Shown here: in pieces, positions 3,186 through 62,153 of the stretch
Layout of the letters: each line of letters starts with the position of its first letter
Position numbering within the stretch: the first letter of the stretch is position 1
Program-made: the position numbers and the translations under genes
The notes under the pieces: generated by a model
Databases searched by the model: none
What the model saw: the letters and a program-made list of their open reading frames with translations, nothing else
Told to the model about the DNA's origin: nothing
From: Eledone cirrhosa
Lineage: Eukaryota
Assembly (NCBI GenBank): GCA_964016885.1
Contig: OZ024742.1
Coordinates: 61,814,001 to 61,878,000 of the forward strand
Reading direction: 5' to 3'
Length of the DNA stretch: 64,000 nucleotides

Positions 3186-3246
<61 letters not shown>

Positions 3247-5019: not shown

Positions 5020-5280
5020 TTCTTATCGGTTAGACACGTCGGCCCGGAGATATCGATCGGTCTCATTGCAGTCTACAGCAAGAAGTGGGGAACATTCCTA
5101 CTATCCTCACCATGGAAAGTAAATCAAGACAGACCCACACATCTGCCTCAGCTCTAGGGGTCATACAGGGGCCAGTTCGTGTCTCCCTCACCATCCTCCG
5201 CGGAAATGCTTTCTCCATTCTGTCCGCCGAGGCCTCGGAAGCGGCCAGCGCGTGGGCCCCCATTTGCTCATAATAGTGAG
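5020..5280 (+). mobile_element. 3' remnant of a CRE-like RLE non-LTR retrotransposon
   Basis: The translation RVSLTILRGNAFSILS resembles the conserved C-terminal (Q)RLSxxIQRGNAxxIL motif of CRE-type elements. Confidence 0.5.
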
Positions 5281-9145: not shown

Positions 9146-9720
9146 AATACCTACATATATATATACATATATATATAAACACATGCATATATATGCATAT
9201 ATATTTACATACATGTATATATATATGTGTGTGTGAGTGTGTGTGCGTTTTTGTGTGTGTGTTCGCGCGTGTGTGTGTGCGGGTGTGTGTGTGTTGTATC
9301 GTAAATCTCCTTCCCAACTGACCACTTACTGAGCTGCGGAGGAGTAATTAACCGATTACTTGTATTACAGATAGCTTGTATTAAATGGATGGCATTTAAC
9401 TTGGAGATAGCGTGAAGATCGTTAGCTGGATAATCTTAATTGGTTATGTTAATAACAGTTTCCAGAGTTCCATTTCAACTAGCAGACATGGCTGAATTTT
9501 ATATTCAATAAGATTACATCCATAAACATTAAGCATTTATTTGCTTCTATATTTACATTTCAAATTATATTGTTACCACAGCCCCCTTTTTGCTTTATCG
9601 GGACACTTGACTGGAATTACAATTACATCATAAATACACAAAGATTTTGAATTTCATCGACGCTATAATAAATTTCTTTGAATTAATGAATTAAATTAAC
9701 TCAAATGTTATATAATAATA

Positions 9721-10036
9721 ATAATTGCTTCTACTTTTGGCACAAGGCCAGCAATTATCCCAGTGCATCACTGGTACTTTATTTTATCGACCCCGTAAGG
9801 ATGAAAGGCAAAGTTAAGCTCGGCGGGATTTGAACTCAGACCATAATGGGCTGTAACTCTTTGCTGCAAAGCATGGCGTCAGACCCTCTACCGATACTGC
9901 CAATCCACCGCCTAATAATAATAATATAATAATAATAATAATAATTGTTTCTACATTTGGCACAAGGCCAGCAATTATCCCAGTGTATAACTGGTGCTTT
10001 ATTTTATCGACCCCGTAAGGATGAAAGGCAAAGTTG
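9721..10036 (-). mobile_element. Two tandem tRNA-derived SINEs with (ATT)n tails
   Basis: The minus strand has A-box TGGCAGTATCGGTAG, B-box GAGTTCAAATCC, core CTTTGCCTTTCATCCTTACGGGGTCGATAAAA and 3' end GGCCTTGTGCCAAAAGTAGAA. Both are flanked by (TAA)n, and the second copy is 5'-truncated. Confidence 0.85.

Positions 10037-10085
<49 letters not shown>
10037..10085. repeat. (TAA)n microsatellite
   Basis: Directly visible. Confidence 0.95.
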
Positions 10086-11009
10086 GGGAAGAAGACGCAC
10101 GAGGTGACGGAGGTCATGAAATCGCTCCCGTAAGTTTTGAATTTTTAACATATTTAAACCATTTGTGAAATAACAACTCTTAGTACAAATGCTACGTAAA
10201 GCACCCGGCTTGAGCCCCAAAAAATTCGGACCCAAAATATATTGTTATAAGGCTCAAATATTCAAATATTCAACTTTGTATTGTACACTGTATATCCAAA
10301 AAAGAAAATGGCTATAAATGGAAGAAGAACCCCCCCCCCCCCCTCCTCCTCTGTATACACTATATAGAACAGCCAAACTCACCAACACCAGAAACTAGAT
10401 ACACCACCCACCCTATCACCTGTGTACACTAAACCACCACCGATCACTACGGCCATCATTACAACCATTATCCCATCACCGCCGCCACCACCCCTTCACT
10501 CCTTCACTGCTGCCACCGCTACAGCACCATCGCTACAGTAATACGGTCACATCACCGCCACCACTGTCTCGGTATCGACATCACCACCACCACTGTCTCA
10601 GTATCGCTACCGCCGCCAGTCTCCCACTTCTTCTTTTAGCTGGCTGCTGCCACCACATTATAGAATCCCTACTGCTAAAAAAGAGGAAGGCATCAAAATA
10701 TATAGATAGACTCAAAAGAAAAAAGAAAAAATAAACAACAAAAGCAGCACAGCAACAACAGTAAAAAACGAGAAAAACAGAGAAAAACAAAAACAAAAAA
10801 AGAAACCCCCAAAACGTAAAGAAAATAAGAATGAAGAGAGAGGCAGGCGGACGGACAGAGAAGAGGGGGGAAAAAGTAAAACTTAAAAAACAAAAACTAA
10901 GTCAGACATTCGAATACTACATTACAATGAAACTTATGCTTATTCATTTTTGGGGCCCTTTCTGCCCGTGTGTTTGTTTGTTTATGTGTGTCCGTATACA
11001 GCGTGGTGA

Positions 11010-14000
11010 TAATGCCACACAAGGGCCAAGTGGGATGGCGGATCCACAGATGGCTATGTAAACATACATTCGCCAATCCTCGATAAGAGTGTTTAAATAT
11101 CGAACATAAACAGTTCGAATAACGGTGAAATGGAGACTAGAACGTCATGTGACAGACTCTCACCCAACAGGTGCCCCCTGGCTCAGCAGCAGGAACCTGA
11201 CTGTCAACGAAATACTGCTGATGTTGGAGGAAGAAGAAGAAGGAAAGGGGCCAGAACCAACTGGACGAAAGAATTGAATAGAACTGTTATGCAATGCTAC
11301 CTGAAAAGTAACCCCAAGGAGAGGGGCTACAGGAGACGGATGCATAACATCTGGAACGAGATTGGTTTATTTAAATTAGATGAACAAAAATTGGCCGGGC
11401 AGGCTCGGGTAATAAGAACTAATGGGTGGATAAGCGAGCTGGAACTGGAGGAACTGAGCAGAGAGAATGGCTTGGAGATGGCGGGTGTAGTATGCCAGAC
11501 AAGCGAGCCGGCGGGAAATGAAGGTGAGGAGGTCCTGAGAGCGGAGGAACCACCCGAAGCAGACAATGATCTGAATACTGAGATAAATAATACCTGGAAC
11601 AGAGATACGGCCACTGAGGAGATGAATGCTGACGGGCTAGGACAAGATTCGGTTGACATCCTAAATTTAGTGGTAGATGAGTTGAACAATGATAGTGGGA
11701 GACCTATGAACCTAAGATTTGTAGACAGGAAAAAGTTAAAAGAAACAACAGCTAAGGTAAACAAAGTCATCCCATACCTTGAGGCGAGGAGTCTTCACCA
11801 GTGCAACAATATCCTCAAAGCAACAGCAAATACGGTGAGGAAACTACTTGGTATAAAAGCGAGAGGAAACAACAGACAAGAAAGAGCAGAGCCGTGGTGG
11901 AAGAAGCGACTGAGTGGGCAAATCGGGGAAATGAGAAATGACATAGGAAAGCTTGAGTCACTACTGAATGGGACACTAAAAAACATAGGCACTAAAAATA
12001 GACTGGAAATAAAATACAAAACTAGGAGTAAAAAGCTAAATATTATCATAGAGGAATTGAAGCAACGCATTGTAGCAAAGAGTGCCAAAATCAGGCGATA
12101 CGAGAACAGAGTCAGTCAGTATAAACAGAACCGCATGTTCGACAACAACCAGAAGATGCTGTTTGGACAGCTTGAGGGGAAAGAAAGAGGCACCGACTTG
12201 ATCCCTGGGGCGGAACAAGCTAAAACATTCTGGAGAGGAATATGGGAGCAGGATGTTAGACACAATGCCCAGGCAGGGTGGATTGAGACAGTACAGAGGG
12301 AGATCGGTGAGCAGGCACAGCAACAGACTGATTTGAGTATCACAGTTGAAACTCTTAAGGGGCAAGCCAAAAAACTAACCAACTGGAAATCACCAGGCCC
12401 AGATGGTGTGCAGGGGTATTGGATTAAACATTTAACATCCCTCCACCCGAAGCTGACGGCCATGTTCAATGACTGCTTGGTGTCGGGTGAGGTGCCAGAG
12501 TGGTTGACAAAAGGTACCACAGTTCTGATAATGAAAGACCGAATCAAGGGTAATGATGTTACCAACTATAGACCTATCACATGTCTGCCCGTAATGTGGA
12601 AACTGTTGACGAGCATTGTGTCTGAGGAAATCTACCATCACCTCCACACAAACAACTTGTTGCCGGACGAACAGAAAGGATGCCGAAAGAAGTCACGTGG
12701 TACAAAGGACCAGTTGCTTATTGATAAGATGGTAATGGGGAATTGCAGGAGGAGACACACTGATCTTGCCATGGGATGGATAGACTACAGAAAGGCATTT
12801 GACATGGTGCCTCATTCCTGGATCACCAAAAGCCTGGAGATCTTCAGGGTGGCAGATAACATCAGAGAGTTGCTGGGCAGGAGTATGGGGTCCTGGGAGA
12901 CAGAGTTGACATCAACTGGAGTATCCTTGGGAAGCGTGAAGATCAAGAGAGGTATCTTCCAGGGAGATAGCCTGTCCCCTCTGTTGTTTGTCCTTGCCCT
13001 GATGCCCTTGACCATTATGCTGCGAAAAGTGAGAGCAGGATACAAGTTGGGAAGGGGAGAGCTTACCATCAATCACCTCCTCTTCATGGACGATCTTAAG
13101 CTCTTCGGGAAAAGTGAGAAGGAGTTGGATGTGCTTGTTGACACTGTCCGTATTTTCAGCAGTGATATATGTATGCAGTTTGGTATTGGTAAATGTGGAG
13201 TCATTGTGATGAGGAGGGGTAGGTTGAGCAGAAGTAACGGGATCCAGATACCAACAGGTGAGATGATAAAGGAAATTGACTCTGAGGAAGGATACAAGTA
13301 TTTGGGCGTTCTGGAGGCTGATGGCATAAAGAACAAAAAAATGAAGGAATTGTTAAGAACTGAATACATTCGGAGAGTAAGGAGCGTATTGAAGTCACAT
13401 CTGAACAGCAGAAATGCCATAAGCGCAGTAAATTCCCGAGCTGTGTCTATTATTAGGTACAGTGCGGGAATTCTGAGATGGAATGTTGCTGAACAAAAAG
13501 AAATGGATAGGAAGACTAGGAAGCTATTGACTATCTACAACATGTTCCACAAGAGGAGTGATGTCGATAGACTCTACCTAAGGAGATCTGAGGGTGGAAG
13601 AGGTCTTATCAGCATAGAGGACTGTGTTCAGATGGAGAAAAACAACCTATACAAATACGTGACCTATAGTAAGGAGCCAATGCTCAGAGCTGTACTGAAG
13701 GAGGGGAGAGTAGGCCAGGGGATACCCAAGGAGGAAATAACATCAAGGAGGAAGAGCAGCCTTAAGGGAAAATCCCTTCATAGTACCTTCTTTGAGAAAA
13801 CTGAATTTAGAGATCCACAGACATGGAACTGGTTGAGAAGAGGAGACCTCAAAAAGGCTACAGAAGGAATGCTAATGGCTGCGCAGGAGCAGGCCCTCAA
13901 AACGAAGTGGTTGAAGCACCATATCTACAAGGAGGAGGCTAGCCCACTGTGCAGGATCTGTGGAGAGAGAGAGGAGACTGTGGCTCACATTGTGTCCGAG

Positions 14001-14629
14001 TGTAAACACCTAGCCCAGACCCACTATAAGGGCTGGAGACACGATGTGATGGGCAGGGTGATCCACTGGCACCTGTGCAAAGTAAACAATCTACCACATT
14101 CTGAGAAATGGTATGAGCATAGGCCAGAGGCGGTGATGGAGAACAGTCAGGTGAAGGTGCTGTGGGATTTTAGGATACAGACGGACAAAAAACTGGAACA
14201 CAATAGACCTGACCTGGTGGTTGTGGACAAAGAAAAAAGATCGTGCCTGATTGTGGATGTGGCCTGCCCGTTCGACACGAGAGTGCAAGAGAAGGAGAGG
14301 GAGAAAATTAACCGATACCAGGACCTAAAGTGGGAGGTGAAAAGGATTTGGAACTGCCATGAAGTCAAAGTGATCCCGATTGTCATAGGCGCACTGGGGA
14401 CTATCTCCAAAGGTTTCCAGGGATGGTTAAAGAAAATCGGCCCCTTCACGCTTTTTGGAACGCTTCAAAAGGCATGCTTGCTTGGAACGGCAAGAACCCT
14501 CCGATACGTCCTGAATATCTGAGGCTGCAGGTAGTGGCTTGATATTCAATCCAACGGACTTTCCAGTTAACCAACATCAATGACTGAGATTCAAGGAATA
14601 ACAATAACAATAATAATAATAATAATAAT
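11010..14629 (+). mobile_element. Apparently full-length Dong-like element with short 3' UTR and (TAA)n tail
   Basis: The ORF above is followed by a ~75 nt 3' UTR and AATAACAATAACAATAATAAT... Dong elements are known to target (TAA)n. The 5' boundary is uncertain. Confidence 0.85.
11130..14522 (+). CDS. Intact single ORF of an R4/Dong-clade non-LTR retrotransposon (RT + CCHC + restriction-like endonuclease)
   Basis: Uninterrupted 1130 aa. It has the R4-type N-terminus WTKELNRTVMQCY..RGYRRRM, RT motifs KSPGPDG, NYRPITCL, DYRKAFD, GIFQGDSLSP and FMDD, then CRIC..ETVAHIVSEC, RHD and the RLE motif RPDLV..D..IVDVACP..EKINRY. Confidence 0.95.
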   Translation: METRTSCDRLSPNRCPLAQQQEPDCQRNTADVGGRRRRKGARTNWTKELNRTVMQCYLKSNPKERGYRRRMHNIWNEIGLFKLDEQKLAGQARVIRTNGWISELELEELSRENGLEMAGVVCQTSEPAGNEGEEVLRAEEPPEADNDLNTEINNTWNRDTATEEMNADGLGQDSVDILNLVVDELNNDSGRPMNLRFVDRKKLKETTAKVNKVIPYLEARSLHQCNNILKATANTVRKLLGIKARGNNRQERAEPWWKKRLSGQIGEMRNDIGKLESLLNGTLKNIGTKNRLEIKYKTRSKKLNIIIEELKQRIVAKSAKIRRYENRVSQYKQNRMFDNNQKMLFGQLEGKERGTDLIPGAEQAKTFWRGIWEQDVRHNAQAGWIETVQREIGEQAQQQTDLSITVETLKGQAKKLTNWKSPGPDGVQGYWIKHLTSLHPKLTAMFNDCLVSGEVPEWLTKGTTVLIMKDRIKGNDVTNYRPITCLPVMWKLLTSIVSEEIYHHLHTNNLLPDEQKGCRKKSRGTKDQLLIDKMVMGNCRRRHTDLAMGWIDYRKAFDMVPHSWITKSLEIFRVADNIRELLGRSMGSWETELTSTGVSLGSVKIKRGIFQGDSLSPLLFVLALMPLTIMLRKVRAGYKLGRGELTINHLLFMDDLKLFGKSEKELDVLVDTVRIFSSDICMQFGIGKCGVIVMRRGRLSRSNGIQIPTGEMIKEIDSEEGYKYLGVLEADGIKNKKMKELLRTEYIRRVRSVLKSHLNSRNAISAVNSRAVSIIRYSAGILRWNVAEQKEMDRKTRKLLTIYNMFHKRSDVDRLYLRRSEGGRGLISIEDCVQMEKNNLYKYVTYSKEPMLRAVLKEGRVGQGIPKEEITSRRKSSLKGKSLHSTFFEKTEFRDPQTWNWLRRGDLKKATEGMLMAAQEQALKTKWLKHHIYKEEASPLCRICGEREETVAHIVSECKHLAQTHYKGWRHDVMGRVIHWHLCKVNNLPHSEKWYEHRPEAVMENSQVKVLWDFRIQTDKKLEHNRPDLVVVDKEKRSCLIVDVACPFDTRVQEKEREKINRYQDLKWEVKRIWNCHEVKVIPIVIGALGTISKGFQGWLKKIGPFTLFGTLQKACLLGTARTLRYVLNI

Positions 14630-14881
14630 GTTTTCTTTATTAACCACAAGGGACAGTACAGGACAATACAGGACAGTACAAATGGGCATTTCTGCGTGTA
14701 AAAAAAAAACAGAGGATGTAATAAAAATAACAATGAAAAATTCCCCAATATGGGGGAGACTTCCTAGGGACATTTGTGGAGAAAGCCCATTAAAAGACCA
14801 CAGTGACCCTGACCACCAGGGCAAGTGCCCTCTCCCAGTTTTCCACCTTTAATTTACAGACACATACTCAGAGTAGGTCCA
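14630..14881 (-). mobile_element. 5'-truncated Tx1-like LINE, mainly 3' UTR
   Basis: Homologous to 14896-15165. The minus-strand end is CCCTTGTGGTTAATAAAGAAAAC-(ATT)n. Confidence 0.85.
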
Positions 14882-14895
14882 TTAATAATAATATT

Positions 14896-17800
14896 GCTTT
14901 CTTTATTAACCACAAGGGTTGACACAAAGTATAACATTAAGGACAACACAGGACAATACAAATGGGCATTTCTGCGTGTAAAAAAAAAAAAAACAGAGTG
15001 TGACAAAAGGAAACAGTGAAAAATACCCAATATGGGGGGAGACCTCCGAGGGTTGCTCGTGGTGAAAGCCACAAGAAAAGCCACGGTTACCCTGACCTCT
15101 AGGGCAAGTGGTCTCTTCTAGTTTTCCTCCTACAATGCTACAGGCACAGGCTCAGAGTAGACCCATTCACACGGGCCATTCTTGCCTCTCTCTCCTTCCT
15201 TTCAACAAACTGGCTGGAGGTCAGCACTTCCCTCTCCACCCTGATTTTCCTCTTCAGGTGAAACCTAAAAAAGTTAATGAGGGCGTCACCGAAGAGCAAA
15301 GTACCGGTCCTCAACCCTTTCAGATGTGTCCACCATACAATCTCTTTTACCATGGCCACCAGGCAGATAAAAACTGCCTGCCCTTCTCGGCTAAAGGAAG
15401 TCGGCGGGGCAATCTTCACGATGGACTCAGCTGATAACCGGATCCGTTCTACATGTGACAGCAGGTGTTCGGCATAAACCCACAAATCAGCAATGCTCGG
15501 ACACTGGACGAGTGCGTGCAGGACAGTTTCATCGCCCAGTGCGCATCTCGGACAGGCTCGGCTGACGCACTTCCATTCCTGTAGAGTTTATCCCGAACTG
15601 GCAAGGTTCCTCTGTAGCACTGCCAGGCCAGGGATTGCTGGAAGTTCTCCATGGGCCCCGGCCCGAAAGTTCTCCCGAAGAGATTGGCTAGTTGATTTTC
15701 ATCGACGCCTAGAGTCTCCCCAAGGACGTCGTTGCTCTTTCCTTCCACTAATCCTCTATAGAAATCCAAGGTGGAGTTTCCAGCGATTGTATTGCTCGAC
15801 TGGTCGAGGGCTCTGAGCGCCTGAAGACATTCTAGTCTCCAAGCGCTTCATCTCGGTCTTCGCTTCACCCAGGACTGCAGCTCCGCCAAGGAGACAAGCT
15901 GGGAAAACATGTGTATAGCAAAGGGCGACCACACCTTATCACCGTCGAGGAAGAGGTGGAGATGCCGTAGCCTGAGCGCATGTCTGCGCATCATCAGCCA
16001 CGGCATGCCCAGCCCTCCGCGTAGCGGGTGTTGACAGCAGATGGACCGCCTGACCATCGGAGCACGAAAGAGCAAACGCTCCCGTGCAGTCAGGCGAGGC
16101 TTAGGACAAGTCACGACGGTCAGGAGGTAGTAGATGACGGACGCGATGTACGCATTCACCACCTCCGCTCGACCTCTCCGCCCATTTCTGGGTGAGAGAC
16201 GCCACCCTGCTCGTCACCTCCTCCCAGTTTTTGTCCGTCTGGAGGTCCGGACCGAACCAGACCCCTACCAATTTAACCGGTCCATCCGTTCAGCGCCCGA
16301 TGACGCCGTTCAGGTGCCGAGTTGCAGGCCTACTGATTTTTCCTGGTTGATCATTGCTCCTGTCACTACCTCGTATCCTCCAATTGCCTCGATGTGTTTG
16401 GTGTTCGACATCACTACGGTGATGTCGTCTGCATAAGCTGACACTATTCTTCCGCATCATAGTTCGCGTGGGATCCCCCTCAATGTCTCCAGTTTGTGCA
16501 GTAATGGCTCAAGAGTCAATACGTACAACAAGGATGAGAGAGGATATCCCTGGCGGATCGAGCGCATTATGTTGAACGGTTCCGAAAGGTGACCGTTCGC
16601 TCTCACCACAGAGCAGATGTCGCTGTGCATGGCAGCAATCCAGCCTCTGAAGACAGGCCCAAAGCCAGCTGCTCTTAGAACTGCTGCCAGATAACGATGA
16701 TCGACCCTATCGAAAGCTTTTGACTGATCTAAATTGATCAAAGACCCACCCATGCCAGGTTCCCTAGATACCCTCTCTACGATGTATCGCATGAGGTGGA
16801 GGTTTTCGTGGATGGATCTGTCTGGAATGGCGTATGTCTGCGCCTCTCCCACCAGACCACCAGCGACAAGCGCTGACCTCTTTGCTAGCACCTTAGCCAA
16901 AATCTTGAAGTCTGTGTTTAGCAGAGTTATGGGCTTGAAATTTTCTATGTTATCCCCCTTGCTCGGATCCTTTCTCAGCAGCGCCACCGCTCCTCGGCTC
17001 ACAGAGCTGGGAATTCTCCCGTTCTGCTGCCAGTTGCAGTAGACGTCCGCCAAGAGGTCTTCGAACAAGTCTGGCATATGTATGTAAAATTCGTAGGGCA
17101 GACCATCCAAACCAGGCGATTTACCCATTGTGCAGCTAGTCATTGCCTCCCGTACTTCAGCAGCTGTTATCGGCCTTTCGCAACCCTCCGCCTCAGTGGC
17201 CAACAGCCGCGGCAGTCCGTCGAGGTAGGCACTGAAGTCCATCCCACGATGCGGCTCGCCATTGCCCCCTGAACAGCTGAGCAAAGTGCCGCTGAAAAGC
17301 CGCACACATCTGCCCGGGATCGAGTATCATGTGCCCGTCGTGGTTCGCCAAAGACCGGATCGTAGCTTTGTTGCCACGATGCGCCTCCGCCACCCGGGCC
17401 CATTGAACGGCTTTTGTCCCCTCGTGTCTGAGAGCACGCACCCTAGCTCTGACAACGCAGCCTTCGTGCTTAGCGTTGAAAAATTGGTCGAGAGCCAATT
17501 TTGCCGCAAGCACGTCGGTCGCGATGCCTTTACTAAGCGCCTCGTCTAATTTCTTAACTCGATGTCCTTATGATTTCGTCACTGTGGAGTGGTGCAATGG
17601 AGTGTGCTCTGGCTTCTTCTGGTGTAGCGAAGAGCACATCCACAGTGCCATATCTCGACCCCCGGGCTACGTATCTTTTCTGTGCCCAGACGATGCCCAT
17701 AGCTCTTTGGACCTGTGACTCCGTTGCCCGTTCAACTCGCCGCGATTTTGATCCGATCGTGCGATAACTGACCGAACACAAAAGCTTGTTTCTTATTATC

Positions 17801-18109
17801 TCAAATGGGTGGGTGAGACTTACCCTGTGTCCGGTCTTTTTAACCAAGACCGTTGCTTGTTTTATTTCTCTGTTAGTGATGTATTCTTGTTCAAAATTGT
17901 TTGTCGCTTTAGCGAAAGACGTGTTTGTTTTGATTTGTGTTGACTCATCACTAGTTTTGTCTTTGTTGCCGTCGTTGGTGTTTTTATTTTTTGTTTTTTT
18001 CCTCTGTGTTGTTGTTCTTTGAGTTCTTTATGGCTGTTGCTGTTGTTATTGTTGTTATTGGGGTGGTGGTGGTGGTGTTTGATTGTTCTAACATAGAGAG
18101 GTTTTCGTT

Positions 18110-18110
<1 letters not shown>
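14896..18110 (-). mobile_element. Degenerate Tx1/L1-clade LINE: ORF1 N-terminus fused by internal deletion to the ORF2 RT and C-terminus
   Basis: ORF2 pieces are KSPGLDGLPYEFY, DQSKAFDRVDH, RQGYPLS, AYADD and GGLGMP. The ORF1 piece at 17570-18094 is homologous to 60552-61400. The APE domain is missing. (TAA)n lies on both sides. Confidence 0.9.
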
Positions 18111-18170
<60 letters not shown>

Positions 18171-18173
<3 letters not shown>

Positions 18174-20457
18174 CCATCATGGCTAGTTAACGGCATTACA
18201 TTCCTGCTTCCGAAGAATGATGAGACAAACAATCCCAAAAATTACAGACCGATAACTTGCTTGACCACAACGTATAAAATTTTAACATCAGTCCTAACTG
18301 AATATACATATGACCACCTGATAACAAATGACCTATTTCCCATTGAGCAGAAAGGGTGTAAACGAGGCTCATATGGCTGTAAGGATCAGCTTTTGGTTAA
18401 CAAAATGATACTGGAAGATTGTCATAATAGACACAAAAATCTATCAATTGCTTGGATAGATTATAAAAAAGCATTCGATAGTTTGCCACACAGTTGGATT
18501 GAAAAATGTTTAGAGATTTTCAAAATATCCCCCGTTGTCAGGAGGTGTGTGTCATTCAGTATGAAGACATGGAAAACGACACTCCTTTTGAATAGTGAAA
18601 CAAAATCACTGGAAGCTGGAGAAGTTAATATTAATTGTGGAATTTTTCAGGGTGACTCTTTATCACCGCTTTTATTCTGCATCGCACTTATACCATTAAG
18701 TAAAATGCTCAATGAAACAAAACATGTATATAAAGTCTATAACAAAACCATTAATCACTTGTTCTACATGGATGACCTGAAACTATTTGCAAAAAATTAT
18801 GAACAATTGCAAGGGCTATTATCCACTGTGGAGCAGTTCAGTGATGACATTAAAATGGAGTTTGGACTAGATAAATGCGCCAAAGCAACGTTCACCAGAG
18901 GAAAGCTGCTGAAGAGTTCGGACATTAACCTTGATCGGGGGAATGTGATAAGAGAACTTGATCAAGAAAAAACTTACAAATATCTAGGTGTTTGTGAAGG
19001 AGACGGAATCAAGCACTCGACAATGAGGGAAAGGATAAGGAAGGAATGTTACCGCAGAGTAAGAGCAATCTTAAGAACGGAATTGAATGCAAGGAATAGG
19101 ATCGATGCCATAAACACGCTTGCCATACCAGTAGAAACTTACAGTTACAATGTCATCAACTGGTCAAGCACAGAGATCCGTAGGCTCGATACAAAAATTC
19201 GAAAATTCTTAACCATGCACAGAATGCATCACCCTAAGGCAGATACAGATAGAATATATCTCCCTAGGAAAGAAGGAGGACGTGGGTTAATCCAGTTAGA
19301 CATTGCGTTGAAAACTGCAACAATTGGATTATCTACATATCTAAGGGAATCACATGATTGGATGATCAAACTCGTTTTGAAACACGAAAGCATCAAAAGA
19401 TCATACTCCATTACAAAAGATGCACAAAGATACAGTAATGGACTACAAATTTCAGAAGTCCCATTTACTGCTGAAATGGAAAACACAGAAAAAGCAAAGC
19501 AGGTAAAAGTAACTGCAAAGAAAGAACTGCTACAGAAACTGGCTAAGAAATGGCAAGAAAAGCCTCTGTATGGAAAATACCCAGAACGAGCTAACAATCC
19601 TGATGTTGACAAAACTTTAACCCATCAGTGGTTGGCATCCTCTGGACTGAAATCGGAGACTGAAGGACTGATTATATCAGCACAAGATCAGTGTCTGCCA
19701 ACAAAAAATTACCAAGCCAACATAATAAAAAATGGATGCAGCCCATTATGCCGTGTATGCAAAAAACAACCAGAGACCATTGACCATATAATTTCAATGT
19801 GCAGTCCTATAGCTCCAACCGAATACCTAAACAGGCATGACAGAGCTGCACAATACATACATTGGATAATGTGTAAGCTTTTGACCTGCCCCATCAAAAG
19901 AATTGGTGGGAGCATCAACCACCTCCCATACTTGAAAAAGATCACATCTCAATCTTGTGGAACTTTAGCATCCAAACAGACCGAAAAATAGATGCAAATA
20001 GACCTGATATAATATTGAAGGACTTTAAAAAGAGGGTATGCCTGCTAATTGATATGTCCGTTCCAATAGACAAGAATGTATCTATAAAAACATTTGAAAA
20101 ATTGAGCAAGTATAAGTACCTGGAGATAGAAATTGGAAAAATGTGGAAATTGAGAACTAAAACAATACCAGTGGTTGTAGGCGCTCTGGGAATGATACCT
20201 AAGGGGTCTAATGATTACTTATCGCAAATCCCAGGAAACCCGCGTATAGGAGAAATACAAAAGATAGTACTAATGGGAACTGCCCATATACTAAGGAAGA
20301 TTCTGTCAATATAAGTACATCACAAGTCTAAACACTAAAGATGCATGTGTGAGTATGTATGTTCTTTCTTGAACATGGCGGACCTTGTTCTCTCTTGAGG
20401 TCACTGGTTGTGACTTGGTGATAACTCGTATGAACATAAAGCAAGATAAATGCAACT

Positions 20458-20458
<1 letters not shown>
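18171..20458 (+). mobile_element. 5'-truncated second R4/Dong-family element with one frameshift
   Basis: Begins IPSWLVNGITFLLPK..NYRPITCL directly after (TAA)n. It contains YMDD, CRVC..ETIDHIISMC, RHD and RPDII, in ORFs 18261-19991 and 19955-20314. The (TAA)n tail is at 20459-20519. Confidence 0.92.
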
Positions 20459-20519
<61 letters not shown>

Positions 20520-20520
<1 letters not shown>

Positions 20521-20648
20521 CTTTCTTTATTAACCACAAGGGTTTACATAAAGTAGACATTAAGGACAGTACAAGACAATACAGGACGGTACAAATGGGC
20601 ATTTCTGCGTGTAAAAGATAACAGAGGATGTAATAAAAAATAACAATG
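20520..20648 (-). mobile_element. Tx1-like LINE 3' tip
   Basis: Near-copy of 14630-14735, between (TAA)n runs. Confidence 0.85.
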
Positions 20649-20657
20649 ATAATAATA

Positions 20658-21659
20658 ATGAATGCTGACAGGCTAGTACAAGATTTGGTTTATATCCTGA
20701 ACTTAGTGGTAGATGAAATGAACAATGATAGTGGAAAATCTATGAACCTAAGATTTGTAGACAGGAAAAGGTTAAAAGAAACAACTTAGGTAAACAAAGT
20801 CATCCCATACCTTGAAGCGAGGAACCTTCACCAATGTAACAATATCCTCAAAGCAACCGCAAGTGCGGTAAGGAAATTACTTGGCATAAAAGCGAGAGGA
20901 AACAACAAACAAGAAAGATCAGGACCTTGGTGGAAGAAACGACTGAATGGTCAAATCAGGGAAATGAGAAATGACATTGGAAAGCTTGAGTCCTTACTGA
21001 ATGGGACATTACAAAACATAGACACTAAAGATAGATTGGAAATAAAATACAAAACTAGGGGGAAAAGCTAAATATTATCATAGAGGAACTGAAGCAACGC
21101 ATTGTAGCAAAATGGGCAAAGATTAGGCGGTATGAGAACAGAGTCAGTCAGTATAGACAGAACCGCATGTTTGACAACAACCAGAAGATGTTGTTTGGAC
21201 AGCTTGAAGGGAAAGAAAGAGGCAACGACGTGATCCCTGAGGCGGAACAGACTAAGACATTCTGGAGAGGAATATGGGAGCAGGATGTTGAGCATGATAG
21301 TCAGGTAGTGTGGATTGAGACAGTACAAAAGGAGATTAGTGAACAGGCACACCAACAACCTGATTTGAGTATCACAGTTGAAACTCTTAAAGGGTAGGCC
21401 AAAAGACTAACCAACTGGAAATCACAAGGCCCAGATGATGTGCAAGGGTATTGGATTAAAAACATAACATCCCTCCACCTGAAACTGACAACCATGTTCA
21501 ATGACTGCTTGATGTCGGGTGAAGTACCAGAATGGTTGACAAAATGTACCACAGTTCTGATAATGAAAGACCGAATCAAGGGTAATGATGTTACCAACTA
21601 TAGGCCTATCAGATGTCTGTCCGTAATGTGGAAACTGTTAACAAGCATAGTGTCTGAGG
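20658..21659 (+). pseudogene. Internal fragment of the Dong-like family at 11130 (matches about 11622-12627), with stops and frameshift
   Basis: Colinear nucleotide similarity, e.g. ATGAATGCTGAC and MFDNNQKMLFGQLEGKERG. It begins in (TAA)n and is truncated at both ends. Confidence 0.9.
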
Positions 21660-21716
21660 GAATATGATGGATAGATTACAAAAACCTACTTGTATATTGC
21701 TAGATATATAAAATAT

Positions 21717-21768
<52 letters not shown>

Positions 21769-22364
21769 CAGATACATACATACACATATGTAAGTATATC
21801 GATACATATAAAAGTGTCCATGAATTATATGTCTTAATTACTTTACTGACGACGACGTTGTTTCTGACTCCTGCCGAGCCAGCCGATAGCGCTATATGCA
21901 AGTGAGGCTAATCAGCCCATGTACATAGGTGTCAAACTATATGTTTGGGCCTATATTTTGGCTTATATTAATTACTTTACTTTACCACCTCAGATAGAAC
22001 ATAAAAACCAGTAACTAATTAGTGATAAGTAGGAAAGAGAAAATAAAAAAATGCATAGATATATATACAAATAAATAAATAGAAACACACACACGCCGAT
22101 GTAGCACATACGCAGTCCAAGTACACTGTTCACAAAGAGGAGACACAGAGTAACAATTATAGTCACTGAGGTCACAAAATGTGTGACGAAACAGCTTTGG
22201 CAATCAACAAATAAACAATCATGCAGTCATTAAACTAACCGACTGGGAAATTATAATAATAAATTGAAGGGTAAAAACTGTGCGCGGTTTTGTGGGCAAC
22301 ATGACTCTCCCAAAGTAGAACAATATCTGAAAACACACGTTTTCATGTAAAAGATGTCGCAAAA

Positions 22365-23314: not shown

Positions 23315-23720
23315 TGGATTGGCAGTATCAGTAGATTGTCTGTTAAATTACCTTGCAGCATTTTGTTTAAATCCCTTGGAGGTCAACGTTGCCTTTCATA
23401 AAATAACGTAATGCTATTCATAAAATAACGTACCAGTTAACTACTGAGGTCGACTTAGTCAAATTTTCGCACCCCTTCAAATTGTGTCAAAAGTAGAAAC
23501 AACTATAAAATGCAGTTGGATTGGCAATATTAGTAAAGCCTCGAATAGCATGCTTTGCGGCATACAGTTACAATCCCTTGCATTCTGAGTTCCCGTCGAG
23601 TTCTACTTTACCTTTCATCCTCTCAGGGACAATAAAATAAAGTACAAGTTACGTACTATGGTCAATATAATCAACTTTCCCCTTCCCTCAAATTGCTGGC
23701 CTTGTACCAATGCTAGAAAG
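23315..23720 (+). mobile_element. Two tandem degenerate tRNA-derived SINEs
   Basis: TGGATTGGCAGTATC heads, CCTTTCAT core and CTTGTACCAATGCTAGAAA / GTGTCAAAAGTAGAAAC ends. Confidence 0.7.
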
Positions 23721-24449
23721 AATATAGAAACGATCCTAATGCTGAAAACATATTATTTTGTTCATTTCGCCTGTAATATAATGTGATAGAAAATAAATAT
23801 AGGTAAAGAGATTCACTAATTTTTATTCAGGTGAATAAAAATCTATTTTAGGTTTATCACTTTCACTTTCTATTAATAAAATTCAATTTAATTAATTAAT
23901 TACTAAGTTGTTTATCAGAAACGTAGATTTTCTCCGTTTTTGAGTTATACTTTTGTTTTTGTTGCCGCACCAAATATATTTCACTCTTGTTTTTTGTTGT
24001 ATTTTTTCTATTAAAGATTAAATTAAAAAATTTAAATAAACAAATAAATATGCATACAATGTTGTCATATTTTGCGAATTACAATATATATATTTCTTTC
24101 TCTTTCTCCGTAAACCAACGGCTTATTTTAAAAATAAAAATATCCAATACTAATAATATAATTAAAGCTACAACTCTACTATCCGGGAGCTTCCAACAGC
24201 AATGGATGCATTCTTTAAGGGTATGTCAATATTTATTTATAAAACTTATCTATATTATATTTTATCTGATGAAAGCACACCATAATTTAACTTGGTGTCC
24301 TTGAAATATGTATAATGAAATAAATATGGTTTTATAAATATAGTTTCCATTTGTTAATATCGTATTTTTACTCCAAATATTTGTTGAGTGCTTTATATCA
24401 GTTATAAAAATATTTGCTTGTTGTATCCCAACAATTTAAATAGAACTTT

Positions 24450-24726: not shown

Positions 24727-27498
<2,772 letters not shown>

Positions 27499-44180: not shown

Positions 44181-44294
44181 AGAGTGAGTGGTTGAGTATT
44201 CCACAGATACGTGTATCCTTAGTATAATTAAATTTCAAGCAGAATCAGCGTGATATGGCTGGAACTTTGAATTACATTCTATCCGTCTACCGTA

Positions 44295-53262: not shown

Positions 53263-53412
53263 CTAAGTTACAGGACATAAACAAACAGTTAATGTACATA
53301 CTGCCACGAAAAAACACTCATACACGCACACGCACGCGCACATACACACACAGATACACACACATACACACACATATATACACATATACACAAACAACAC
53401 AAGCATAGATAT

Positions 53413-53772
53413 GTTTCTTTATTAGCCACAGGGGCACAAAAGAAGGGGACAAATACAAAGGGGGAAGTTTACATACAATAAAAACGTGTAAAATATTATC
53501 ACAAATGCAATTTAAAAGTTAATCGATTTTCACCAATAGGGGGAGACATTTCATATGGGTAACACATACCAACGAAAAAATGTGCAACCCTCATCTCCAG
53601 GAGTACGAAGAGGTTGTACCCCTTTCCTCTCTTCCTCTTTTTCCTCAACCTACAGGCTGATATAGAGAGAAGGCCCATTCACTCGGGCCATTCTCGCCAC
53701 TTTCATCCACCTTTCATAAAACTTGCTGGGGTACAGCACCTCTCTCTCTCCATCCTGATTCTTCTTCCAAAA
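53413..53772 (-). mobile_element. Tx1-like LINE copy E (3' tip)
   Basis: Translation REVLYPSKFYERW..PSLYISL*. Ends CCCCTGTGGCTAATAAAGAAAC-ATATCTAT. Confidence 0.88.
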
Positions 53773-53788
53773 ATAGATAGATAGATAA

Positions 53789-55945
53789 ATTTCTTTATTA
53801 GCCACAAGGGCACAAAAAAAGGGGACAAATACAAATGGAGAGTTTACATACAGGTATATGAAAATAAAACTATTAATAAAATAACAAATAACAATTGAAA
53901 TCCCCAATAGGGGGGAGGTGTTACACAGGGGTTGTACACACCCCGAAAAAATGTACAACCCTTATCTTCAGGAGCACCAAGAGTGAGTGCTCCCTTCCTC
54001 TCTTCCTCTTTTTCCTCAACCTACAGGCTTATATAGAGAGAAGGCCGAACCGCTCGGGCCATCTTCGCCACATTCACCCACCTTTTATAAAATTTGCTGG
54101 GGTACAGCACCTCTCTCTCCATCCTGATTCTTCTTCCAAAATGATATTTGAAAAAACGAATCAGTTGCTCACCGGAGAGAAAGGTGTCTGACCTCAGCCC
54201 TTTTAACCTCGTCCACCATATAACCTCTTTCACCATAGCCATAACACATAGGAAAACCGCCTCTCCCTCGTTTTTGAAGGAGGGCGGCGGTTTGATCATG
54301 ACAATGGACTCGGTGGTCAACTGGATTGGTCCCACCCGCGACAATAGTCGTTCTACATAGCTCCACAGGTCAGTAACGCTCGGGCAGTGTACAAATGCGT
54401 GTGCGACGGTTTCCTCGTCGCGCACGCATCTCGGACAGATCTTTTTCGAAGGGTCCCTACCCGAGTGCCCGTGTCTGTAGAGCTTATCTCGAACTGGTAG
54501 AGCTCCTCGGTAGCACTGCCAGGCCAGGGACTTTTGGAAGTTTCCATTGGTCCCGGGCGGGAGGTCCTACCGAAAAGACTGGCCAGTTCGTCCTCCTCTA
54601 CGGCTAGAGTTTCTCCGAGCGTGTCGTCGCACTTGCTGCGGGCCAACCCTCTATAGAATGTCGAAGTGGAGTCTCCACTGATCGCCGGGTCCGTTTGCCA
54701 GAGGACTGTGAGCGCCTTTCAAGGATAGTTTGCACTCGGCCCACTTCTGGGTGAGCGCAAACACCTTGGCCGTCACCTCGTTCCAGTTCTTCTCCACCTG
54801 GAGGTCAGGACCAAACCAGACCCCGAGCAGCTTTACCGGTCCTTCCGTCCAGCGTCCGACGACGTCATCGAAAGGCATCGGTTTGCCTCTCTACGTTCCG
54901 AGTTGCAAACCGACGGATTTGTCCCGGTTCAGCTTCGCTCCTGTGAACCTTTCGTATTCCTCCAGTAAGGTGCAGATCTCCCCGATTTGCGAGGTGCTCG
55001 ACACCATTACTGTCACGTCGTCGGCGTATGCCGACGCCGCTTTTCGCAGTCCCGATTCCAAAGGGATGCCCTGCAATAGTTCCAACTTGAGCAGTAGTGG
55101 CTCGAGAGTCAGTATGTACAGAAGGGAGGAGAGAGGGCATCCCTGTCGGATGGATCGCGTGATATGGAACGCCTCCGAGAGGTAGCCGTTCACCTTGACC
55201 CTTGAGCAGATGTTGCTGTTGTGCATTGCAGCAATTCAGCCCCTGAACACGGGGCCGAAGCCTGCCGCCTCGAGCACCGCATCCAGGTAACGATGGTCAA
55301 CCCTATCGAAAGCCTTAGACTGATCCAAGTTGATCAGGGCCCCACCGAAGCCGGGTTTACACCCTACCCTCTCTATTATGTATCGCATGAGGTGGAGGTT
55401 GTCGTGTATGGACCTGGTCGGGATTGTGCATGTCTGCGCCTCTCCCACCAGGTTTTCGACGACAAGCGCTAGCCTCTTTGCCAACATATTGGCCGAAATC
55501 TGTAACTCAGTGTTGAGCAGAGTTATGGGCCAGGAAGTTGCCTATGTCGTCCCCCTTGTTTTCGTCCTTCCTGACTAACGTGATTACGCCCTTGGTCACA
55601 GAACTCGGAATTCTCCCGTTCTGCTGCCAGTTGCAGTAGACCGCTTCCAGGAGACCAGAGAACAATCTGGCATTGCTACATAAAATTCGTAGGGTAGACC
55701 GTCGGGACCTGGAGATTTGCGTTTGCCGCATTGGCTCAGCGCATCCCCTCTCGCAGCGGCCGAAATCGTCCTTTCGTAGAACTTCGCCTCGCTGTCCGAG
55801 AGTCGCGGTAGGCCGTCGAGGTATGAACCGAAATCCATAGGCCCTCCCGGCGCGCCGCACTGCCCGAACAGTTGAGCAAAGTGCCGCTGAAAGGCCGCGC
55901 ACATTTGCTTCGGCTCACGTATCACGCGTCCGTCTTGGTCCTTCA
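53789..55945 (-). mobile_element. Tx1-like LINE copy D (RT to 3' end, internal deletion near 54716)
   Basis: KSPGPDGLPYEFY, DQSKAFDRVDH, RQGCPLS and AYADD, with a (TATC)n tail at 53773-53788. Confidence 0.92.
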
Positions 55946-55952
55946 TAGATAA

Positions 55953-56632
55953 GTTTCTATTTATTTGCCACAAGGGCATAAAAGAAGGGGAGAAATACAA
56001 ATGGGGGGGTTTACATACAGGTATATGAAAATAAAACTATTAATAAAATAACAAATAACAATTGAAATCCCCAATAGGGGGGGCGTAACACAGGGGTTGT
56101 ACACACCCCGAAAAATATACAACCCTCATCTCCAGGAGCACCAAGAGTGCATACTCCCTTCCTCTCTTCCTCTTTTTCCTCAACCTACAGGCTTATATAG
56201 AGAGAAGCCCAACCACTCGGGCCATCTTTGCCACATTCACCCACCTTTTATAAAATTTGCTGGGTACAGCACCTCTCTCTCCATCCTGATTCTTCTTCCA
56301 AAATGATATTTGAAAAAACGAATCAGCTGCTCGCCGGAGAGAAAGGTGTCTGACCTCAGCCCTTTTAACCTCGTCCACCATATAACCTCTTTCACCATAG
56401 CCATAACACATAGGAAAACCGCCTCTCCCTCGTTTTTGAAGGAGGGTGGCGGTTTGATCATGACAATGGACTCGGTGGTCAACTGGATTGGTCCCACCCG
56501 CGACAATAGTTCGTCCTCCTCTACGGCTAGAGTTTCTCCGAGCGTGTCGTCGCACTTGCTGCGGACCAACCCTCTATAGAATCTCGAAGTGGAGTCTCCA
56601 CTGACCGCCGGGTCCGTTTGCCAGAGGACTGT
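55953..56632 (-). mobile_element. Tx1-like LINE copy C (3' part, internal deletion near 56508)
   Basis: Near-identical to the 3' part of copy D. Ends CCCTTGTGGCAAATAAATAGAAAC-TTATCTA. Confidence 0.9.
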
Positions 56633-56678
<46 letters not shown>

Positions 56679-56679
<1 letters not shown>

Positions 56680-57409
56680 TTCTTTATTAGCCACAAGGGC
56701 GCAACAAGAAAGGGGACAATACAAAGACATGCCGGGGATTTTACATACAGTCGTGTAAAAAATATAAAAACAAACAATTTCAACAATCGAAATCCCCAAT
56801 AGGGGGGAGGCGCCACAAATGGGTTGTTTAATACCCCGTCGATAGAACAACCCTCAACTCAAGGAGCGTGTTGTGCAAGTGCTCCTTTCTTCCTTTTGCT
56901 CTCTTCCTCAACCTACAGGCTTATAAACAGAGAAGGCCCAATCACTCGGGCCATTTTCGCTTCATTCACCCACCTTTCAGTAAATTTACTGGGGTGCAGT
57001 GCCTCTCTCTCCACCCTGATTCTCCTTCTAAAGTGATACTTAAAGAATGGAATCAATTGTTGTCCGGAGAGAAAGGCATCTGTCCTCAGTCCTCTCAACC
57101 TCGTCCACCATATAACTTCTTTCACCATAGCCACCGTACAGAGGAAAACCGCCTCTCTTTCGTTTTTGAAAGGGTCTGGCGGTTTGATCCTTACTATGGA
57201 CTCGGCAGTCAACTGTATTTGTCCCATACGCGACAGCAGTTGTTCTTCATAGTTCCACAGGTCGCTTACGCCCGGGCAGTGTACAATTGCGTGCAGAACT
57301 GTTTCAATGTCCTGCGCACATCTTGGACACGTCCTCTTGGAAGGATCCCTGCCAGGGCGTCCGTGCCGGTAGAGCTCCTCGGTAGCACTGCCAGGCCAGG
57401 GACCTCTGG

Positions 57410-57411
<2 letters not shown>
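56679..57411 (-). mobile_element. Tx1-like LINE copy B (3' part)
   Basis: CPRCAQDIETVLHAIVHC..PSLFISL*, flanked by (GATA)n at 56633-56678 and 57412-57467. Confidence 0.9.
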
Positions 57412-57467
<56 letters not shown>

Positions 57468-60210
57468 TCTTTCTTTATTTGCCACAGGGGCGTACAAAAA
57501 TGGGACATTACAAGATGTGACGGCGGGGTTTTACATAAAAATCATATAACTTCAACATTAATAAATAAGAATTAACTATATATAATAAAATAACAAATAA
57601 CAATTGAAATCCCCAATAGGGGGGAACGTTATTGCAGGGTTGTTTTACACCCCGTGGATAGAACAACGCTCAACACCAGGAACACGTTTTGTAGGTGATC
57701 CAGTCTTCCCTCTGTTTATCTTCCTCAACCTCCAGGTTTATATAGAGAAGGCCCATTCACTCGGGCCATTTTCACCACATTCACCCACCTTTCAGCGAAT
57801 TTACTGGGGTGTAGCACCTCTCTCTCCACTCTCACCTTCCTTCTGAAGTGGTACTTAAAGAAGAGGATAAGTTGTTGTCCGGAGAGAAAGGTGTTTTCCC
57901 TCAGTCCTTTTAACCTCGTCCACCATATTACCTCTTTCGCCATAGCCACCAGACAGAGGAAAACCGCCTCTCCTTCATTCTTAAGTGAAAGCGGCGGGGT
58001 GATCCTCACCATGGACTCGGCTGACAACTGGATGCGTCCCACACGTGACAGTAGCTGTTCGACATAATTCCACAGGTCGGTCACCCCTGGGCACTGAACA
58101 ATTGCGTGCAGAGCGGTTTCGATGTCTCGCATCTTGGACAGGTCCTTTTGGCAGGATCTCTGCCAGGGCGTCCGTGCCTGTAGATTTTGTCTAGAACTTT
58201 TAGAGCTCCTCGGTAGCACTGCCAGGCCAGAGACCTCTGGAAGTTATCCATAGGCCTTGGACTGAAAATCCTCCCGAACAGACTGGTCAGTTCGTCCTCC
58301 TCGATGCCTAGAGTTTCCCAGAGAACGTTGTCGCACTTATCCTCCACTAATCCCCTATAGAATGTCGAAGTGGAGTCTCCGCTGATTGCCGTTTCCGCTT
58401 GGTAGAGAGCTGTGAGCGCCTGAAGGCACTCGAGGTGCCAGGCACCCATTTTCGGTCTTCGCTTGACCTAGGACTGCAGCTCTGTTAGTGAGACGAGTTG
58501 TGGAAGAGCTTGTCTCACAAACGACAGCCACACCGGTTCACCGGTCTGGAATAGCTGGAGATGGCGTAGCCTCAGCGCGTGTTTGCACATCATCAGCCAC
58601 GGCATGCCCAGCCCTCCGTTAGAAGGGTGTTGACAGCAGATGGATCTCCTCACTAATGTAGCCTGTTTCTTCCAGAGGAATTTGAAGAGTAGGCGTTCCA
58701 TTTTGGCAAGGTATTCGCGGGGACAGGGCACGGCTGTCAAGCGGTAGTAGATGACGGACGCTATGTAAGTGTTCGCCACCTTCGCTCGACCTTTCAAGGA
58801 GAGTTTGCACTCAGCCCACTTCTGGGTGAGTGCAAACACTTCGCCGTGACCTCGTTCCAATTCTTGTCCACCTAGAGGTCTGGACCAAACCAGACTCCGA
58901 GCAATTTCACCGGTCCTTCCGTCCAGCATCCAACGACGCTGTCGGAAGGCATGGGATTGCCTCTCCATGTGACGAGTTGCAAACCGACAGACTTGTTTGG
59001 GTTTAGTCTTGCTCCTATCAACGTTTCTTATTCCTGTAATAGGTTGCCGATTACCCCGATTTCCGAGGTTTTCGACACCATTACGGTTATGTCGTCGGCA
59101 TAAGCCGACGCTGTTTTCCGCAGACCTGGTTCGATCGGGATGCCCTGCAACAGCTCCAACTTACGCAGTAATGGCTCGAGAGTCAGTACATACAGAATGG
59201 AGGAGAGAGGGCATCCCTGACGGATAGAACGCATGATTTGGAATGGCTCCGATAGGTAGCTATTCACCTTGACTGCCGAGCAGATGCTGGTGTGCATGGC
59301 AGCGATCCAGCCTCTGAAGACGGGACCGAAGCCGGCCGCCTTGAGAACCGCTTCCAAGTATTGATGGTGGACCCTATCAAATGCCTTAGACTGATCTAAA
59401 TTAATCAGAACCCTACTGAAGCCAAGTTTACACCCTACCCTCTCTATGATGTATCGCATGAGGTGGAGGTTGTCGTGTATGGACCTGGTCGGGATTGTTC
59501 TCATCTTTCCTGATCAGTGTTACTACGCCTCTGCCTACAGAACTGGGAATCCTCCCGTTCTAATGCCAGTTGCAGTAGACCGCTTCGAGGACGCCAGAGA
59601 ACAAGTCTGGCATGCCTATGTAAAACTCATAGGGTAGACCATCTAAACCGGGTGATTTGCGTTTCCCGCAGCGGCGTAGGGCATCTTCTATTTCGCCCGC
59701 TGTGATCGGCCTTTCGCAGCTCTCTGCATCCATGCTTGAGAGTCGTGGTAGGAACTGAAGTCCATCACCTCGCTCGACGTACCGCTTTGCCCGAACAGTT
59801 GTGCAAAATGCTGCTGGAAGGCCGTGTACATCTGCTTGGATTCAAGTAGAATGCGTCCATCTTTGTCTTGCAAAAACCGAATTATGGATTTGTTGCCACT
59901 TTTCGCCTCTGCCACTCGGGCCCAGCTAACAGCTTTGGCTCCCTCGTTTCTTAGAGCACGTGTTTTACTTCTGACAATACAACTTTCGTGTTTCACGTTG
60001 AAAAACTGGTCTAGTGCCGTTCTCGCCGCTAACATGTCAGCTGTACTTCCATTCCTAAGTGCCTCTTCTACTTTAGCTACCAGTTCCTTTTCAGTTTTGT
60101 TTTTTTCTAAAGCTACTTCCTTGCTAAATGCTATCGATTCTATTCTAATTGCTCTCTTGATAGAGCTCCACCACCTGTTGCTAACGATCGCCCCCGTCAA
60201 CTGGCACTTA
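57468..60210 (-). mobile_element. Tx1-like LINE copy A (post-endonuclease ORF2 to 3' end)
   Basis: WWSSIKRAIR, DQSKAFDRVH, RQGCPLS, AYADD and GGLGMP across frameshifted ORFs, with a (TATC)n tail. Confidence 0.92.
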
Positions 60211-60545
60211 ATCTATGTGGGATGGACACACGTGTGAAACTTGCTGAGTAAGTTCTGCTTAAATGTCTATAGAAATTCCTGACTGTGAGCCTTCGTTTTT
60301 ATACCAATTTGTAGAGGGACTGCCAGGTCAAATTTTGATCTGGTCAGTCTCTCAAAATATTCTACGCCTTTAGGCGAAATAGTTCATGAAAAACCTTTTG
60401 GGAAAAGTAACGTTTTAAAACATTCGAAGGAGGAAAAGGGAAGATATGCTTACAGCTTCCCCCTTCCACTGTCATAGTAGCAGATGTCTCAGACAAAGGT
60501 CAGAAAGAGGAAGGATTTTCTCCACCTGCTGATCGACAACTTGAC

Positions 60546-62113: not shown

Positions 62114-62153
62114 GATAGATAGATAGATAGACATACATATATATATTTACTTG

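Follow-up and report, generated by a model that had tools for sequence, protein, structure and literature searches.

Dong retrotransposons, among them Dong of Bombyx mori, DongAg, DongBg and Darwinula Dong1/2, carry a single open reading frame (ORF) with a reverse transcriptase (RT) and a restriction-like endonuclease (RLE) and target (TAA)n, a target called usual for Dong in insects, molluscs and cnidarians in PMC7998251 and also given in PMC3812793. In a 64,000-nucleotide stretch of the Eledone cirrhosa genome (contig OZ024742.1, positions 61,814,001 to 61,878,000; hereafter the window), Dong copies of this kind stand in a chain with copies of a Tx1-type element, which carries an apurinic/apyrimidinic endonuclease (APE), and with a short interspersed element (SINE). 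Unlike the described Dong cases, two Dong families here have one target in common with each other and with an APE element. Tx1-clade families that home to microsatellites are also described, namely Kibi on (TC)n, Koshi on (TTC)n and crocodilian families on (TTCC)n or (TTTC)n (PMC4494074); the present Tx1 lineages resemble them as APE-type elements and differ in their targets, (ATT)n and (ATCT)n, in their invertebrate host and in having a target in common with an RLE element. TRAS and SART of Bombyx mori enter one tandem repeat from opposite directions, and swapping their endonucleases swaps their specificity (PMC7265360); both are APE elements of telomeric repeats, whereas here an RLE and an APE element meet on dispersed microsatellites. 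Finally, the crocodilian SINEUs are inferred from a shared target to be mobilized by Tx1-Mar (PMC4494074). They have small nuclear RNA heads and poly(A) tails, whereas the SINE described here has a tRNA-type head, a 3′ hairpin in common with Tx1 and over 120,000 copies. Octopus repeat papers list Dong-R4 and L1-Tx1, with targets absent from the text covered (PMC13282606, PMC8967140, PMC12988792), and recent Dong-R4 activity has been reported for Octopus vulgaris (PMC13282606). Further background is found in PMC4640811, PMC4824008, PMC3747384 and PMC8869645.

In the account that we favour, the two Dong families lie in the TAA sense, and a Tx1-type lineage and the SINE in the ATT sense, of what would be a polarized stack of target-specific retroelements. 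The restriction-like nuclease of Dong would nick the TTA strand and the APE of Tx1 the TAA strand, each nick priming reverse transcription. Insertion leaves repeat on both sides (clearly for Dong, less strictly for Tx1), so that a limited pool of long arrays would be renewed beside existing copies and chains would grow; tail-to-tail pairs would follow from this common pool, with no recognition between the families. The SINE would use Tx1 proteins via its 3′ hairpin, and sister Tx1 lineages use (ATCT)n. Taken as a whole (polarized stack, division by strand, shared pool, Tx1-linked SINE and target switch), we give this account a probability of about 0.8.

Opposite polarity of Dong and Tx1 at TAA repeats

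The region was read, its repeats and ORFs were mapped, and exact element ends were counted across the 3.0-Gb assembly, with baselines taken from 1.19 Mb sampled evenly as 119 pieces of 10 kb; L-numbers denote loci of this genome outside the window that were used for copy comparison. The initial annotation had described the order Dong(+), TAA, Tx1 tip(-), TAA, Tx1(-), TAA, Dong-B(+), TAA, Tx1 tip(-), TAA, Dong fragment(+). Strands and order match our mapping, and both of the tail-to-tail junctions that it claimed are seen, at 14598-14629 and 20459-20519. The extent given for the cluster, 11010..21660, was right in content and wrong in its start: the chain begins at 9713 with two antisense SINEs, and Dong-A runs from 10086 (Table 1).

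Six copies in the window alone are weak evidence for polarity, but the polarity holds genome-wide. Exact 3′ ends number 9,451 for Dong-A, 2,397 for Dong-B and 9,913 for the main Tx1 type. ATTATTA lies within 1-3 bases 3′ of 8,155 of the Tx1 ends (82%), whereas TAATAAT follows a Tx1 end in 34 matches at 29 places, with 8 still beginning with ATT. At 79 sampled arrays of at least 4 units, written as TAA, Dong is sense in 12/12 cases, Tx1 antisense in 10/10 and the SINE antisense in 29/29, and TAA-type tails stand behind all 60 Dong ends fetched by pattern. The earlier proposal that a Tx1 lineage occupies the same microsatellite as Dong on the opposite strand is thus confirmed by 8,155 matches versus 34 and by sampled arrays without exception; orientation is not random across the genome, and this Tx1 is enriched at TAA.

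From its first base, 10086, onward, Dong-A is 97.4% identical to the L142 copy. Its single open ORF (11097-14522, first ATG at 11130, a 1141-codon frame) contains an RT, a CCHC motif and a PD..D-type restriction-like nuclease. Pfam detected RVT_1 and no Exo_endo_phos; the CCHC and RPD..D motifs were read in the translation. This layout, a single ORF with an RT followed by CCHC and nuclease and lacking an APE, is that of the R4/Dong clade, and the best solved-structure relatives of the protein are R2 proteins. For the divergent N-terminal Myb/SANT domain of this clade, Pfam gave no match, and a Rap1-Myb cluster (0.86, rank 7 among the atlas leads) is a lead only. At 36% amino-acid identity, Dong-A and Dong-B are on this comparison separate families. 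In the two families, a 3′ TAA run is present at 48/51 and 56/58 ends and the 5′ junction is TAA-periodic in 25/32 and 23/29 mapped copies, with runs of similar length on the two sides (3′ longer/5′ longer in 13/18 and 15/13). Dong needs long TAA arrays, with repeat on both sides and TAA as the sense strand. Exact patterns were used for the counts, as similarity search with the Dong-A 3′ end, whose words occur too often, was unproductive. A motif that recurs to the left of some arrays was considered as a third Dong family and rejected, being the 5′ end of full-length Tx1 in antisense.

Judged by its sequence, the long Tx1 copy in the window is dead. It aligns to a full-length relative only at positions 404-953 and 2472-5139: the first ~400 bp are gone, the frames are broken, and an internal deletion of ~1.5 kb near 17565-17572 has taken out the APE domain. 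The label 'APE-type' comes from full-length relatives and not from the window copy. A near-intact one (L146:1408-7449) contains Exo_endo_phos (the APE; 9e-14), RVT_1 and zf-RVT, with an ORF1-like region upstream. The best named relative of this L146-type Tx1 is Xenopus Tx1L (255 bits, against 165 bits for human L1), and the closest named protein relative, at 72%, is from Argonauta hians. In a quick version of an RT tree, which had no true L1-clade row, Tx1 is nested among Tx1-labelled rows.

Near-identical Tx1 copies at separate places (L298/L266 and L312/L313) suggest that one ATT subfamily was active recently, and in the DNA tree the long copy of the window falls in an ATT subfamily older than that one. 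At L167:4105-8051, two Tx1 3′ halves lie head to head with their ATT tails outward, a fold-back structure. Two further recurring sequences directly behind Tx1 ATT tails (L005, L019, L026, L294 and L299; L008, L017 and L309) are probably the ends of further TAA-targeting families. A common repeat that starts immediately after a short TAA run, in many cases with (TA)n before it (L059, L060, L073, L125, L134, L136, L143, L153, L225 and L256), may also belong to the TAA group or else be a family that itself carries (TAA)4.

Table 1. Features of the TAA-linked chain and of the second Tx1 stack (window positions)
Position	Strand	Feature	Basis
9713..9724	+	(TAA)4 array at the left end of the chain	Repeat mapping
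9725..9912	-	tRNA-type SINE with A- and B-box-like motifs; CUUGU hairpin, AGAA and ATTAT tail at its end	Motifs from sequence
9913..9944	+	Imperfect TAA array	Repeat mapping
9945..10036	-	5′-truncated SINE, same family as 9725..9912	95% to 9712-9815
10038..10085	+	(TAA)16 array, 5′ flank of Dong-A	Repeat mapping
10086..14597	+	Full-length Dong-A (R4/Dong type)	ORF, domains, copy comparison
14598..14629	+	Dong-A tail / TAA array, tail-to-tail junction 1	
14630..14883	-	Tx1 (ATT lineage) 3′ tip, about 250 bp	92% to the L146 copy
14883..14894	+	TAA spacer, about 3 units	
14895..18110	-	Tx1 (ATT lineage, older subfamily), long copy with RT and zf-RVT remnants	
18111..18170	+	(TAA)20 array, from Tx1 5′ end to Dong-B 5′ end	
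18171..20458	+	Dong-B, 5′-truncated, frameshift near 19878	97.8% to full-length L142 copy
20459..20519	+	(TAA)20 array, tail-to-tail junction 2	
20520..20652	-	Tx1 (ATT lineage) 3′ tip, about 130 bp	
20658..21663	+	Internal Dong-A fragment without 3′ end, behind a spacer (about 20649-20660) of only about 3 TAA units	89% to intact Dong-A
53404..60230	-	Separate stack of sister Tx1 copies, joints mostly (GATA)n, which is (ATCT)n on the element strand	

An Rfam search of 9600-22000 returned only chance-level or low-complexity matches. Elsewhere in the window, 25606-27166 (-) and 31289-32656 (-) hold two degenerate frames that resemble RT and carry C-terminal cysteine motifs and GIY-YIG-like endings; judged by eye, they look Penelope-type, and they gave no Pfam match at E 0.01.

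Tx1 targeting, the pool of long arrays and alternative explanations

An ATT run of at least 3 units lies 3′ of 78/97 Tx1 ends. At the other end of the element, four of five full-length copies have 7-22 ATT units directly upstream, and ATT is periodic at 21 of 61 mapped 5′ junctions against 12 of 5,000 random positions (0.24%); the other 40 of the 61 lack clear ATT periodicity, and roughly 10 of these are alignment breaks inside ORF1. Both the 82% of 3′ flanks and the 21/61 of 5′ flanks lie above the >20% criterion for a target preference given in PMC4494074. Non-repetitive target duplications starting with ATTA are present in two copies (L323 and L021). The 3′ run is longer than the 5′ run in 35 copies and shorter in 10, so part of the ATT is probably a tail made by the element; Tx1 probably both targets ATT and adds some. 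It is improbable that the ATT is nothing but an element-encoded tail, as in some other long interspersed elements (LINEs), laid down by loose insertion into AT-rich DNA at which Dong arrives later. Many truncated Tx1 copies without 5′ ATT would fit such a tail, as would SINE targets that are often just ATTAT plus unique sequence. The upstream units of the full-length copies and the 5′ ATT excess over background argue against it, as do the duplications that begin with ATTA and the ATCT sister copies, which are flanked by ATCT on both sides with visible duplications.

Within 6-80 bases, an exact Tx1 end faces 1,064 of the 9,451 Dong-A ends (11.3%, a lower bound), where positional chance would give about 0.012%. 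An exact Tx1 end is likewise found at 3/28 sampled arrays of at least 6 units (10.7%) and at 3/79 of at least 4 units (3.8%). When diverged ends are counted, 13/60 Dong ends and 9/30 Tx1 ends stand in tail-to-tail pairs; a same-strand pairing control gave 0, although it is a weak control that requires a very short Tx1 tip. The pool of long arrays comes to about 70,000, extrapolated from the 28 in 1.19 Mb, and 21 of those 28 touch Dong, Tx1 or the SINE. As 11.3% is what long arrays show in general, the pairs require no preference between families, and we infer that a shared, self-renewing target pool suffices for them. The earlier suggestion that each family seeds targets for the other therefore stands in one part, in that repeat is left on both sides and most long arrays are touched by an element, and finds little support in another, in that the counts (11.3% versus 3/28) show no specific mutual preference. 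Enrichment of co-occurrence, which the initial annotation had proposed to compute, is absent relative to long arrays (p=1.0) and about 3-fold relative to arrays of at least 4 units (p=0.03).

A more directed cross-seeding can be envisaged, in which Tx1 and the SINE write ATT tails at short ATTAT sites and so provide long arrays for Dong, while Dong tails attract Tx1 beyond what free arrays do. We regard this as a tentative possibility, somewhat doubtful on present counts. It agrees with Tx1 3′ runs that are more often the longer ones (35 versus 10) beside symmetric Dong runs, with the 21/28 touched arrays and the 3-fold excess, and with the paired ends counted with diverged copies included. 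Relative age points the same way: of 27 tail-to-tail pairs, 20 have a Dong that looks the younger partner and 6 a Tx1, by a crude nearest-neighbour measure; however, this measure mostly mirrors the homogeneity of Dong (median 0.98-0.985 versus 0.945), and among the 27 are a duplicate and some pairs with an intervening SINE. The lack of any excess over long arrays also speaks against it. A Tx1 end is faced by 8/24 non-self Dong-B similarity matches, as might be expected if a single composite had multiplied by 3′ transduction or by segmental duplication to give the pairs, but this figure is biased to rare shared words and was not used as a pairing rate. Such an origin is extremely unlikely: the pairs bring together both Dong families and two end variants of Dong-A with several variants of the Tx1 end and with many different spacer lengths, and truncation points differ in both partners. 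The Tx1 copies paired with Dong are moreover scattered over all ATT subfamilies of the DNA tree, and on this scatter a single composite spread by transduction was rejected. Among four contig sets of unknown kind, only pile-ups of multi-copy sequence were seen, and no contig with an empty site.

The standard geometry of target-primed reverse transcription would have Dong prime on the TTA strand and Tx1 on the TAA strand. Priming by Tx1 on the opposite strand, as initially annotated, would fit this geometry and the genome-wide opposite polarity. Convergent transcription across the junctions finds no footing in the window, where each junction has only a 3′ tip as its Tx1 partner (about 250 and 130 bp) and the long Tx1 is without its first ~400 bp. 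Putative read-through from full-length Dong-A into antisense Tx1 tips would be a likelier route to antisense RNA.

Several points weigh against the shared-pool, strand-divided account. The strand of the first nick is deduced from geometry and polarity. Opposite orientation occurs in two SINEs and one Tx1 behind 30 Tx1 tails, and the inverted pair in L167 and L055 are further exceptions. Renewal of the repeat is clear for Dong, with its 25/32 and 23/29 periodic 5′ junctions, and looser for Tx1, of which 40/61 5′ junctions lack clear periodicity, many truncated copies are truly without 5′ ATT and the 3′ run tends to exceed the 5′ run. The pairing baseline consists of 3 arrays out of 28 or 79, with a 3-fold excess against the 79. 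The RT tree lacks a true L1-clade row, and the hairpin common to the SINE and Tx1 is short (3-4 bp), with weak folding z-scores (-0.2 to -2.1) and stem changes drawn from hand-picked, related rows.

The SINE and the (ATCT)n sister lineages

The exact 3′ end of the SINE occurs at 123,857 places, and copies number at least that many. SINE and Tx1 ends have in common a CUUGU (or CCUGU) loop, a 9-nt spacer, AGAA and two bases before an ATTAT-type tail. The hairpin is present in the minimum-free-energy fold of 6/6 ends, and every hairpin group with at least two members is SINE or Tx1. Stem changes on both sides (C-G versus G-C, and G-C versus A-U) were matched in 0/500 shuffles, taking the best of 7 registers over 11 rows; as these rows are hand-picked and related, 0/500 is not a probability. 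A target duplication is seen in 42/64 full-length SINEs, with a median of 15.5 bp and mostly from ATTAT. The insertion signatures of the SINE and Tx1 are alike, with duplications starting with ATTAT and ATTA, respectively (two clear cases for Tx1), and equal polarity at arrays. These features suggest that the SINE is likely mobilized by the ATT Tx1 lineage through the common 3′ hairpin. Movement by RTE or another LINE, with the likeness to Tx1 ends arising by convergence, seems unlikely to us. RTE-BovB is abundant in octopuses (PMC8967140) and the stretch common to the SINE and Tx1 is only about 30 nt; however, behind most RTE-like copies in the 9-10-kb loci used for copy comparison stands a (GAT)n or (CAT)n run, and these copies carry no hairpin of this kind themselves, which weakens RTE as the partner.

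RTE-like LINEs mostly followed by (GAT)n runs, at L068, L153, L064, L072, L111 and L129, form a further microsatellite-linked family. The window also contains more copies of the SINE family, at 24820-24890, 43744-44193, 45504-45913, 49643-50407, 23482-23728 and 29817-29946, several of them in tandem with common duplications that start with ATTAT.

The Tx1 copies stacked at 53404-60230 are about 70% identical in nucleotides to the ATT lineage. Behind 29 non-self ends of this ATCT type, ATCTAT comes next in 25 and ATTATT in 0, and duplications are visible in imperfect repeats. An 88-copy DNA tree groups the ATT copies in a single clade of 62 (support 0.998) made up of 54 ATT copies, 5 unclassed ones and 3 labelled TAA, 2 of these picked by opposite-strand pattern; the other 26 copies are ATCT or of no class. 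The tree is midpoint-rooted and does not give the direction of the target change. Near-complete ATT and ATCT endonucleases are 56-62% identical. The loop before SRSYLD reads NR[I/V]GSS in four ATT copies and N[R/H]SG[S/Q/K/T]S in seven others, three of which are tied to ATCT tails and four assigned by context or similarity only. This loop is presumably the specificity loop of L1-type endonucleases, for which the PDB has LTX and LR1 entries. The Tx1 group would thus have changed target once, possibly through this endonuclease β-hairpin loop, or the loop difference may simply track ancestry.

Two other parts of the window hold Tx1 sequence. At 60500-62118 (+), ORF1-like Tx1 sequence lies opposite to the adjoining ATCT-type copy and ends at a GATA run, with a weak match to the L182 ORF1 region at 61615-61987; it looks like a 5′ inversion from twin priming. 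At 32900-34024 (+) lies a truncated ATCT-lineage Tx1 whose tail is short and atypical and which lacks a GATA array.

Implications of a probable division of one target by strand

Each part of this system has a precedent, be it Dong on TAA, microsatellite-targeting Tx1, sharing of a repeat from opposite directions or Tx1-driven SINEs; what is new is the targets and the RLE/APE pairing for known kinds of element. In the literature searched, neither a Tx1 that targets ATT or ATCT nor a Tx1 partner of an octopus SINE was found; such elements may be recorded in Repbase, in Kojima and Fujiwara 2004 or in the supplements of PMC4494074 and PMC13282606, which lay outside that search.

A wider conjecture, which we think rather unlikely in its entirety, is that one Tx1 lineage organizes much of the repeat landscape. 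A loop change would have given it ATTAT specificity, it would drive the SINE through the hairpin, and its tails would be the main source of long arrays; Dong read-through at over 1,000 junctions would then yield antisense Tx1 and SINE RNA, combining mutual feeding with silencing.

Closely related APE endonucleases (about 56-62% identical) with different microsatellites offer a natural pair for the study of sequence choice, which matters for gene-insertion tools based on site-specific retrotransposons. A likely motor can be named for a SINE that is among the most abundant in this genome, and octopus SINEs have been discussed as agents of genome restructuring (PMC12988792). RLE and APE elements appear here to split one dispersed target by strand, and because the target is divided in this way, ordered multi-kilobase stacks of transposable elements may arise without a selected function.

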